From assembly GCA_040905045.1 (NCBI GenBank), contig JBBDSH010000081.1, positions 18,919 through 82,918 on the forward strand: 64,000 bases of DNA, written 5' to 3'. The stretch comes from Gammaproteobacteria bacterium (GTDB lineage Bacteria > Pseudomonadota > Gammaproteobacteria > Eutrophobiales > Eutrophobiaceae). Below the pieces are notes generated by a model. It was not told where the DNA came from. It made no database searches and saw only the letters and a program-made list of their open reading frames with translations. The position numbers were made by a program, and so were the translations under genes. Shown here one piece after another: positions 26,135 to 26,335 of this stretch. Positions within the stretch are counted from its first letter, which is position 1. Each line of letters starts with the position of its first letter.

Positions 26135-26335
26135 TTAGCCACAGAGAGCCTGCCCCGGACTGGATCCGGGGACACAGAGTTCACAGAGGTGAGAACATGC
26201 TGCATGTAGGTTGTTAGTAATCAATCCTGTTAGTTAAACAGCTATTACCACCCGGTAACATTCAAGCAAAAACTATATTTCTCTGTGGTCCTCTGTGTCC
26301 CCGGATCCAGTCCGGGGCAGGCTCTCTGTGGCTAA
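26135..26335. repeat. 201-bp MITE-like element with perfect 45-bp terminal inverted repeats (TTAGCCACAGAGAGCCTGCCCCGGACTGGATCCGGGGACACAGAG)
   Basis: 26135-26179 is the exact reverse complement of 26291-26335. Each TIR contains an internal ccccgga...tccgggg hairpin. The AT-richer interior is non-coding. Lies between the TPP-enzyme gene and the GMC gene. Confidence 0.85.

Follow-up and report, generated by a model that had tools for sequence, protein, structure and literature searches.

Whether a 201-bp element bounded by perfect inverted repeats is a transposon that has recently arrived, a pair of repetitive extragenic palindromic (REP) sequences, or a structure built up in several steps is the question raised by positions 26135-26335 of a 64,000-nucleotide stretch of contig JBBDSH010000081.1, taken from a Gammaproteobacteria bacterium (assembly GCA_040905045.1) and referred to here as the window. 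In this study, the anatomy of the element, the state of the same intergenic gap in related genomes, and the distribution and boundaries of the mini-hairpin carried by its arms were investigated. We consider it probable that the element is a composite of two layers and not a transposon with 45-bp terminal inverted repeats (TIRs), the older layer being an intergenic hairpin made of short tandem units and the younger one a 24-nt REP-like hairpin that entered both of its arms. It is an ordinary kind of bacterial repeat, in which the insertion footprint is unusually clear.

The two arms, 26135-26179 and 26291-26335, were recomputed and are reverse-complementary at 45/45 positions, with 111 nt between them, as an earlier sequence-only reading had noted; no inverted repeat of the window is longer, and no other long one is perfect. 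The mini-hairpin seen in that reading is likewise perfect and present in both arms, as CCCCGGA-CTGGA-TCCGGGG. With the mini-hairpin and its tail removed, each arm resolves into three CACAGAG units with a period of 9-10 nt, the third being an imperfect CACAGAG/CTCTGTG unit placed inward of the perfect arms (26182-26188 and 26281-26287), so that the left arm reads TTAGCCACAGAG / AGCCTGCCCCGGACTGGATCCGGG / GACACAGAG / TTCACAGAG. The apparent 45-bp TIR is thus a chimera in which a 24-nt insert separates the outer 12 nt of array from the inner 9 nt, and the perfect tract ends 9 nt inward of the insert, where the arms read TT versus GAC. The two inserts are 129-153 nt apart (129 nt between the mini-hairpin stems), with array units and a unique 92-nt core between them. 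The parts of the element are as follows, L002, L003 and L148 being contigs from other genomes that are described further below.

26135..26146, + strand: left-arm terminal unit TTAGCCACAGAG, the first of the CACAGAG nonamer array; GCCACAGAG likewise opens arrays in L002, L003 (two sites) and L148.
26147..26170, + strand: 24-nt REP-like insert AGCCTGCCCCGGACTGGATCCGGG, with an AGCCTG tail, a 7-bp stem and the loop CTGGA, delimited by its removal and by comparison of empty and filled sites.
26171..26188, + strand: left-arm array units two and three, GACACAGAG and TTCACAGAG, of which only the bases up to 26179 belong to the perfect arm.
26189..26280, no strand: core or spacer, unique and AT-richer, with small internal stems; no other copy was found, and the cores in L148, L003 and L002 are unrelated.
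26281..26299, + strand: array units on the inner side of the right arm, CTCTGTGGTC and CTCTGTGTC; in L148, CTCTGTGTC lies directly next to CTCTGTGGCTA, which is the empty site.
26300..26323, - strand: second 24-nt insert, reverse-complemented (+ strand CCCGGATCCAGTCCGGGGCAGGCT), its orientation confirmed by the independent contig L155.
26324..26335, + strand: right-arm terminal unit CTCTGTGGCTAA; the same terminus occurs in L148 and is decayed in L003.

Since the window comes from a metagenome-assembled genome (MAG) and perfect palindromes can come from mis-joins, a fold-back or chimeric join might be suspected, the more so as short-k contigs break inside the element. A second assembly of run SRR27977661 (from Logan, and perhaps built from the reads that gave the MAG) contains two contigs that enter the element, one from each flank, and both end in the loops of the mini-hairpins, with mini-hairpin orientations matching the window. 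The unique flanks each run about 30 nt into their own arm, and the break points lie where a 45-bp repeat longer than k = 31 predicts them. As these flank contigs agree with the window, the arms are not an artefact of one assembly, and the same architecture is present in other samples in L002 and L148; an artefact therefore has a next to negligible probability in our estimation.

The sequence-only reading described the element as similar to a miniature inverted-repeat transposable element (MITE) and took its perfect TIRs to imply recent mobilisation or gene conversion. A classical MITE would be a deletion derivative of an insertion sequence (IS), placed here recently by a DDE transposase. Such an element would indeed be expected to show the long perfect TIRs, the 201-bp length, the non-coding AT-richer core and the intergenic position, and the TA beside GCC...GGC at both ends can be read as a TA duplication. 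However, this TA belongs to the palindrome and could equally be a continuation of the inverted repeat, and the related hairpins of L003 and L002 do not have it; the flanks (...ATATC/TTAGCC...GGCTAA/TTGGA) contain no direct repeat, and no target-site duplication was detected. A second copy of the core region 26180-26290 was found neither in the window nor in 0.94 Mb of related and matching loci. Moreover, the inverted repeats at the termini are chimeric, their 24-nt part stands alone in 49 unrelated contexts, and an insert-free version of the hairpin occupies the same gap in relatives. The MITE account is, with these observations, very improbable.

Genomes related to that of the window bear on the proposed composite origin. 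The element lies between a gene for a GMC-family oxidoreductase and one for a thiamine-pyrophosphate (TPP) enzyme, and the relatives are fetched contigs that encode the closest GMC orthologues, for which GMC identity is given at the protein level. When 26147-26170 is deleted, the left arm becomes GCCACAGAGGACACAGAGTTCACAGA, i.e. GCCACAGAG-GACACAGAG-TTCACAGA, and agrees at every base with the array at L003 620-645, L003 being from the closest relative available. The state of the gap in the relatives was as follows.

L148 (GMC 77%): a hairpin that is intact and immediately follows the GMC stop, TAGCCACAGAG-ATCACGGAG-GAACACAGAG...CTCTGTGAT-CTCTGTGTC-CTCTGTGGCTA, with the termini of the window, an unrelated core and no mini-hairpin (-51 kcal/mol, z = -4.9).
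L003 (GMC 82%): a decayed hairpin, GCCACAGAG-AACACAGAG-GGATACAGAG...CTTGTGTGGCTA (z = +0.4), in the gap between GMC and the next gene, presumably that of the TPP enzyme.
L004, L005 and L153 (GMC 71-72%): a different heptamer-array hairpin, of the GTGAGG/GTAAGG class, after the GMC stop.
L149-L152 (GMC 74%): no array after the GMC stop.

At a different locus, in another gammaproteobacterial MAG, L002 carries a CACAGAG hairpin with the 24-mer in one arm only, at the same unit junction, and a scan of a genome collection for CACAGAGAGCCTGCCCCGGA returned L002 as its single match. The host hairpin is therefore observed with no copy (L148), with one copy (L002) and with two copies (the window). As related genomes hold an array hairpin in the same gap, the hairpin most likely predates the species of the window, and, most simply, a CACAGAG hairpin would have been present between GMC and TPP before these lineages split, its core having drifted since. 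L003 has an additional array hairpin upstream of GMC, which the window lacks, and array hairpins therefore turn over. L002 was also considered as an orthologue of a site near position 54492 of the window, where a relative of the mini-hairpin lies, and was rejected: the SDR genes are 56% identical and the upstream genes unrelated. The core of the CACAGAG hairpin in L002 (590-700) is itself a palindromic repeat (GTCATTTCGACCGACGGGAGAAATCC...GGATTTCTCGCTACGCTCGAAATGAC), so that repeats are nested in repeats in this lineage.

The 24-nt insert is itself a widespread and discrete unit. Metagenome contigs scanned for its 22-mer core GCCTGCCCCGGACTKGATCCGG gave at least 120 loci and viral contigs a further 18; counts of copies (in the form AGCCTGCCCCGGACTKGATCCGGG), contexts and pairs given here refer to the matches listed, approximately 140 loci. 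The unit has the build of a REP, being 24 nt long with a 7-bp stem. The window contains four copies of it and public data more than 140, with highly diverse flanks that fall into at least 49 unrelated contexts. In an abundant alphaproteobacterial-type repeat, the empty site CCGGAAAA^GTGGGTACCGGTTTTCCG contrasts with the filled site CCCGAAAA-AGCCTGCCCCGGACTTGATCCGGG-GTGGGTACCGGTTTTCGG (in short, CCGGAAAA^GTGGGTACC versus CCCGAAAA-(24 nt)-GTGGGTACC), and in a second such repeat AGCGAA^GTGGATACCGGTTCGC contrasts with the same sequence plus the same 24 nt (AGCGAA^GTGGATACC versus AGCGAA-(24 nt)-GTGGATACC). The difference between empty and filled sites is exactly 24 nt, nothing being duplicated, and a single placement of the boundaries fits both pairs as well as the CACAGAG arrays. 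Over the 49 contexts the flanks follow the consensus c-A-G^insert^G, with A in 35/49, G or A in 39/49 and the following G in 48/49. This is precise, duplication-free insertion at a short specific target, as in IS200/IS605-type elements, and the suggestion of the sequence-only reading that the GCCTG hairpin is a REP-like repeat is borne out by its wide dispersal and by the exact empty and filled sites.

The AGCCTG tail is present in 114/134 copies, and both copies in the window's element are of the rarer G-loop variant, which was seen in 3/134 copies elsewhere. Exact 24-mers lie on Palleronia and Sinorhizobium replicons, and alphaproteobacterial plasmids carry the unit; one copy falls under a coding sequence annotated as a transposase in S. 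meliloti (CP090106.1 at 1215082-1215108). In a homologous open reading frame (ORF) of five prophage-like contigs (L133, L134, L137, L138 and L146), the 24-mer is in frame and adds eight codons, ...AVDG-ACPGLDPG-YWLVSFMHDDLGY...; Pfam gave no match for the insert-carrying ORFs of L134 and L041, and the label of transposase comes from the S. meliloti annotation and from a reading of the translation. In sphingomonads (Novosphingobium), the identical stem-loop CCCGGACTTGATCCGGG stands behind a CGTCAT/CGTCAC tail. A 1.8-kb soil contig (L041, 760-1350) carries two exact 24-mers, each nested in another GCCTG-tagged palindrome, and, within the same 600 bp, two AGCCTG hairpins with different stems on the opposite strand; the host sequence (...WYRKRGVIEQFFRTLKK) looks like a DDE transposase by translation, without confirmation from Pfam. 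A text search of the literature for the exact sequence found no paper.

Within the window itself, the terminal 25-mer TTAGCCACAGAGAGCCTGCCCCGGA occurs at three sites, 26135(+), 26335(-) and 54492(+), with none expected from 100 shuffles. The copies that the sequence-only reading had listed beyond the element could all be recovered: the solo copy at 54492, with a different loop, is identical to the arm end over as much as 27 nt, the diverged copy at 4846-4870 matches the arm 25-mer at 24/25 positions, and the direct repeats at 36842 and 37076 extend to 62 nt, both carrying GCCTGTGCCGGACAACGATCCGG.

4848..4871, + strand: 24-mer, T-loop variant with its last base changed (AGCCTGCCCCGGACTTGATCCGGT), at ACAG^GGAC.
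36842..36903, + strand: first 62-nt direct repeat, with a GCCTG-TGCCGGA-CAACGA-TCCGGTA hairpin, within a mosaic repeat cluster.
37076..37137, + strand: second 62-nt direct repeat, 90% identical by direct-repeat comparison.
54490..54541, + strand: solo relative, AATTAGCCACAGAG, AGCCTG-CCCCGGAT-(13-nt loop)-ATCCGGG, CTAC; a GTAG-tagged long-loop REP on the minus strand, between two minus-strand genes.

Of these, 4848 and 54504 are members of the same tagged family, to which 36854/37088 appear to be related. Further hairpins begin with AGCCTG-CCCC and continue with other stems, the window's relatives at 54504 and 36854/37088 among them. Only the long-loop relative at 54504-54541 ends in CTAC, which reads as the classical REP tag GTAG on the opposite strand. 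GCCTG is not generally enriched before hairpins in the window; at the metagenome loci, with the searched motif masked, it was seen 8 times against 3.6 expected, a mild excess. The mosaic cluster at 36790-37190, between two minus-strand genes, contains a GTAG-type REP (ccccgcattgcgctgcgcttcatgcgggCTAC), the two 62-nt repeats, TGTGGGAG/CTCCCACA palindromes similar to REPs of the Pseudomonas type, and an array of ACTTCTT heptamers.

We also considered whether the two inverted hairpins and their spacer form one non-autonomous unit, a REP doublet forming a hairpin (REPIN), copied by a single-copy REP-associated tyrosine transposase (RAYT). According to the REPIN model, only inverted doublets replicate and singlets are dead remnants. 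The identical inverted hairpins of the element do form one long hairpin on folding, the genes on either side of the element are co-oriented and the upstream stop is near, as is usual for REPs, and GTAG-tagged REPs, which usually accompany a RAYT (PMC3116915, PMC3733652), are present in the window at 54504-54541 and at about 36790-36830. Yet, inverted pairs of the 24-mer were absent among the approximately 140 other loci listed, where all five two-copy loci are direct, and inverted doublets accordingly do not predominate. The two copies of the element are held apart by array units and a unique 92-nt core, where REPINs have short spacers, the L148 hairpin exists without REPs and that of L002 with one arm filled, the 24-mer bears neither a GTAG nor a CGTC tag, and a weak test detected no RAYT either in the window or in the loci. 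A REPIN-type origin is for these reasons quite unlikely.

Returning to the composite, we propose that its first layer would be an intergenic hairpin whose arms are tandem 9-nt units (NN-CACAGAG), with the termini (T)TAGCCACAGAG...CTCTGTGGCTA(A) and a freely drifting core, such array hairpins being common in the lineage. In the second layer, the 24-nt AGCCTG-CCCCGGA-CTGGA-TCCGGG would have entered between the first and second units (CACAGAG^GACACAGAG) in both arms, and its presence in both would make the perfect 45-nt repeat. For the second copy, two routes have about even odds. It may have come by another site-specific insertion, as the same target is present on the opposite strand of the other arm; with the target on opposite strands in the two arms, two insertions give the observed mirror arrangement. 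Alternatively, it may have come by intrastrand template switching across the quasi-palindromic arms, which is an established way in which quasi-palindromes become perfect. The rare G-loop shared by the two copies fits derivation of the second from the first, and the inward end of the perfect tract at 9 nt is compatible with both routes.

As to the enzyme, precise and duplication-free insertion of a tailed hairpin at a short site is a signature of HUH/Y1 enzymes acting on single-stranded DNA, such as TnpA of IS200/IS605 and RAYT. The 24-mer may thus have been moved as single-stranded DNA by a RAYT- or IS200-type enzyme, and the CCTG next to its stem, which sits where HUH systems carry a guide or tag and is complementary to the preferred target CAGG, would by analogy act as the guide. 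Beyond this, we put forward only tentatively, as a possibility that we regard as doubtful, that AGCCTG mini-hairpins might constitute a third class of REP-like tag besides GTAG and CGTC, in which a single 24-nt hairpin would be the mobile unit, inserted and excised precisely at cAG^G, complementary to its own CCTG, in a guide-directed single-strand HUH reaction on one hairpin, and nearly unchanged across Alpha- and Gammaproteobacteria, including phage-like contigs and in-frame positions in transposase genes. The junction of insert and array unit creates GGGGACAC, which fits GGGGWSAS, a motif reported in inverted repeats flanking some tyrosine-transposase genes; this may be a coincidence.

Several observations weigh against the proposed two-layer origin and its mechanism. 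With E. coli RayT as a single distant query, tblastn against the window and about 140 loci gave a best hit of E = 0.28, this being the only search for transposases made in the window, and no recurrent neighbouring gene was found within 2 kb of the 24-mer matches, the only shared genes being prophage genes among viral contigs. The CGTC repeats, which have the same stem-loop, have no dedicated transposase reported (PMC3733652). One arm end and the solo copy at 54492 have 14 nt of flank in common (AATTAGCCACAGAG), and array unit and hairpin could instead move together. The large flank clusters (62 and 15 sites) could be single insertions followed by amplification of a composite repeat, so that independent insertions are perhaps nearer 49 than 144 in number. 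The ancestry of the site rests on three relatives, and independent gains in the same gap are possible; on that view too, the 201 bp are no recent arrival as a unit. Homing of the 24-mer to hairpin loops, or nesting in palindromes, had seemed convincing by eye but found no statistical support (p = 0.31 and 0.14 over the 49 contexts), and an earlier fold-based measure of its siting gave no discrimination.

The possible consequence of the element for its host lies in the transcript of the two genes that flank it, which likely form an operon.

26345..27898, - strand: GMC-family oxidoreductase, the upstream gene (Pfam GMC_oxred_N/C); its protein is 100% identical to an NCBI MAG protein of Gammaproteobacteria bacterium.
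24357..26099, - strand: thiamine-pyrophosphate enzyme, the downstream gene (Pfam TPP_enzyme_N/M/C), with an identical gene call in the Logan contig L155.

In the direction of transcription, the element begins 9 nt past the GMC stop codon, between the two minus-strand genes, and ends 35 nt from the longest-ORF start of the TPP enzyme. As RNA, the whole element folds at -132.7 kcal/mol (z = -14.4), and as single-stranded DNA at -76.4 kcal/mol. The GMC-TPP transcript would therefore carry a perfect 45-bp stem 9 nt after the GMC stop, and this very stable hairpin in the mRNA would most likely be the chief effect of the element. The stem may block 3' exonucleases, be cut by RNase III, or both, which would uncouple the expression of the two genes; since a 45-bp stem should stall 3' exonucleases and is long enough for RNase III, unequal levels of the GMC and TPP cistrons would be expected. 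A position just after the upstream stop and between co-oriented genes is typical of REPs, most of which are thought to be transcribed (PMC3733652).

It could then be asked whether the structure is maintained for its own sake, the operon needing a stem between its cistrons that acts as stabiliser, attenuator or RNase III site, with the arms kept by selection and the REP insert incidental. Five related contigs have some array hairpin, of two sequence classes, right after the GMC stop, the arms are conserved as the cores drift, the stem is extremely stable, and REP and MITE hairpins modulate mRNA decay (PMC3733652). On the other hand, the hairpin of L003 has decayed to background stability (z = +0.4), which indicates that it is dispensable, and L149-L152 (GMC 74%) have no array there; a terminator-like T tract is absent, a scan for intrinsic terminators finding neither a terminator-like site nor a T tract; and selection of this kind would explain the upkeep of the hairpin, not the source of the 24-mer. 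That the hairpin exists mainly through selection for RNA structure we judge unlikely.

A sigma-70-like match, GGGACA-18-TATAGT (26301-26272, minus strand), is weak (9/12, a match to the consensus only); its -35 falls where the 24-nt insert meets an array unit, its -10 lies in the core, and it points toward the TPP gene. At the gathering threshold, Rfam gave no match over the whole window, and a permissive Rfam search of 25900-26600 returned a plant miRNA match to the long hairpin only, which was dismissed as spurious. Around position 24000, the G+C content rises abruptly, being about 0.50 over 1-24 kb and about 0.59 over 24-52 kb, and the element lies 2 kb inside this GC-richer block, which carries pyrroloquinoline quinone (PQQ)-dehydrogenase, GMC and TPP genes and may be an acquired segment.

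Compared with known systems, the element works like a REP dimer or a Correia-type hairpin, and is a member of neither the MITEs nor the REPINs. With REPs, bacterial interspersed mosaic elements (BIMEs) and REP dimers (Di Nocera et al. 2013, PMC3733652) it shares a GC-rich stem-loop of 20-40 nt, one end of which bears a short conserved tail, an intergenic place near the 3' end of the upstream ORF, occurrence as singletons, dimers and clusters, the possibility of sitting in other palindromes or in frame in ORFs, and, for dimers, folding into a large hairpin. The same survey (PMC3733652) documents REPs located near the 3' terminus of the upstream ORF, REPs in palindromes and ORFs, and composite TIRs of REPs with other stem-loops. 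It differs in that the tail is AGCCTG, with CCTG at the stem, and not GTAG or CGTC, and in that the unit is 24 nt with sharp ends, the copies here being split by array units and a unique core instead of a usual dimer spacer. With the REPIN-RAYT system (Bertels and Rainey 2011, PMC3116915), the element has in common inverted REP-like hairpins that pair and a proposed tyrosine HUH transposase; however, elsewhere the 24-mer is a singlet or a direct pair only, among the loci listed, and hairpins with one arm or no arm filled exist, so the doublet is not the unit of spread.

The ends of IS200/IS605 elements and of their miniature derivatives, the palindrome-associated transposable elements (PATEs), are similar in the absence of target duplication at a short site and in a hairpin with a short 5' tail at the guide position, whereas here there is a single 24-nt hairpin with no left and right ends and no cargo, and TnpA was not found. 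The comparison with a guide draws on what is known of IS608 and would apply here by analogy. The hairpin MITEs of the Correia/NEMIS, ERIC and RUP kinds have comparable sizes (100-200 bp), long inverted arms, co-transcription and expected effects on mRNA stability or through RNase III, but they share sequence over the whole element, target duplications and a cognate IS; here only the arms are shared, and these are built of tandem 9-mers. The short tandemly repeated repetitive (STRR) sequences of cyanobacteria and the TAACTGA repeats of Beggiatoaceae (PMC4679880) resemble the first layer as tandem units of 7-9 nt, intergenic near gene ends, in many sets per genome, whose mechanism of spread is not known. 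Here, unlike in those, the arrays are mostly inverted pairs forming hairpins, the purine-rich arm always first, and the unit sequences (CACAGAG, GTAAGGA/GTGAGGA, GCCAAG/GCAAAG) differ; nearly all TAACTGA sets are direct repeats just upstream of start codons (PMC4679880).

Head-to-tail arrays of short units were found in L002, L003 (twice) and L148, and many heptamer arrays are spread over the window, the present element being the CACAGAG representative of this class. Many of its intergenic regions contain 7-nt tandem arrays of GTAAGGA/GTGAGGA/GTAAGAA, GCCAAG/GCAAAG or GGTGGCT, as pairs at 39227-39329, 46496-46580, 35746-35850, 61646-61726, and 49470-49510 with 49773-49814, and singly at 24272-24356, 37124-37180, 59219-59239 and 63191-63225. 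Most are imperfect inverted pairs that form hairpins round unrelated cores, with the purine-rich arm first on either strand; they often begin right at a stop codon, and the same classes occur at corresponding sites in L004 and L153. Units of the GTAAGGA type hold TAA/TGA in all three frames and are Shine-Dalgarno (SD)-like, their partners being anti-SD-like. A third, unrelated family (CTATATAGCCGCTCCGAATCCGTGTACAGTCCGGGAACATA) was noticed at 3391-3432, 3552-3593 and 61044-61086, the first two copies forming a 42-nt, 79% inverted pair 119 nt apart and the third lying 57 kb off; it is another MITE- or REP-dimer-like candidate.

The mechanism by which REPs spread is still unsettled, and this study provides clean footprints for one 24-nt hairpin, whose empty and filled sites are exact in several unrelated repeats. 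A host hairpin found in no-copy, one-copy and two-copy states, together with a tail complementary to the target, would offer a pair of substrate and target for an HUH enzyme. For annotation, the element is best described as a repeat-built RNA/DNA hairpin between two genes, and as neither a transposon nor a gene.

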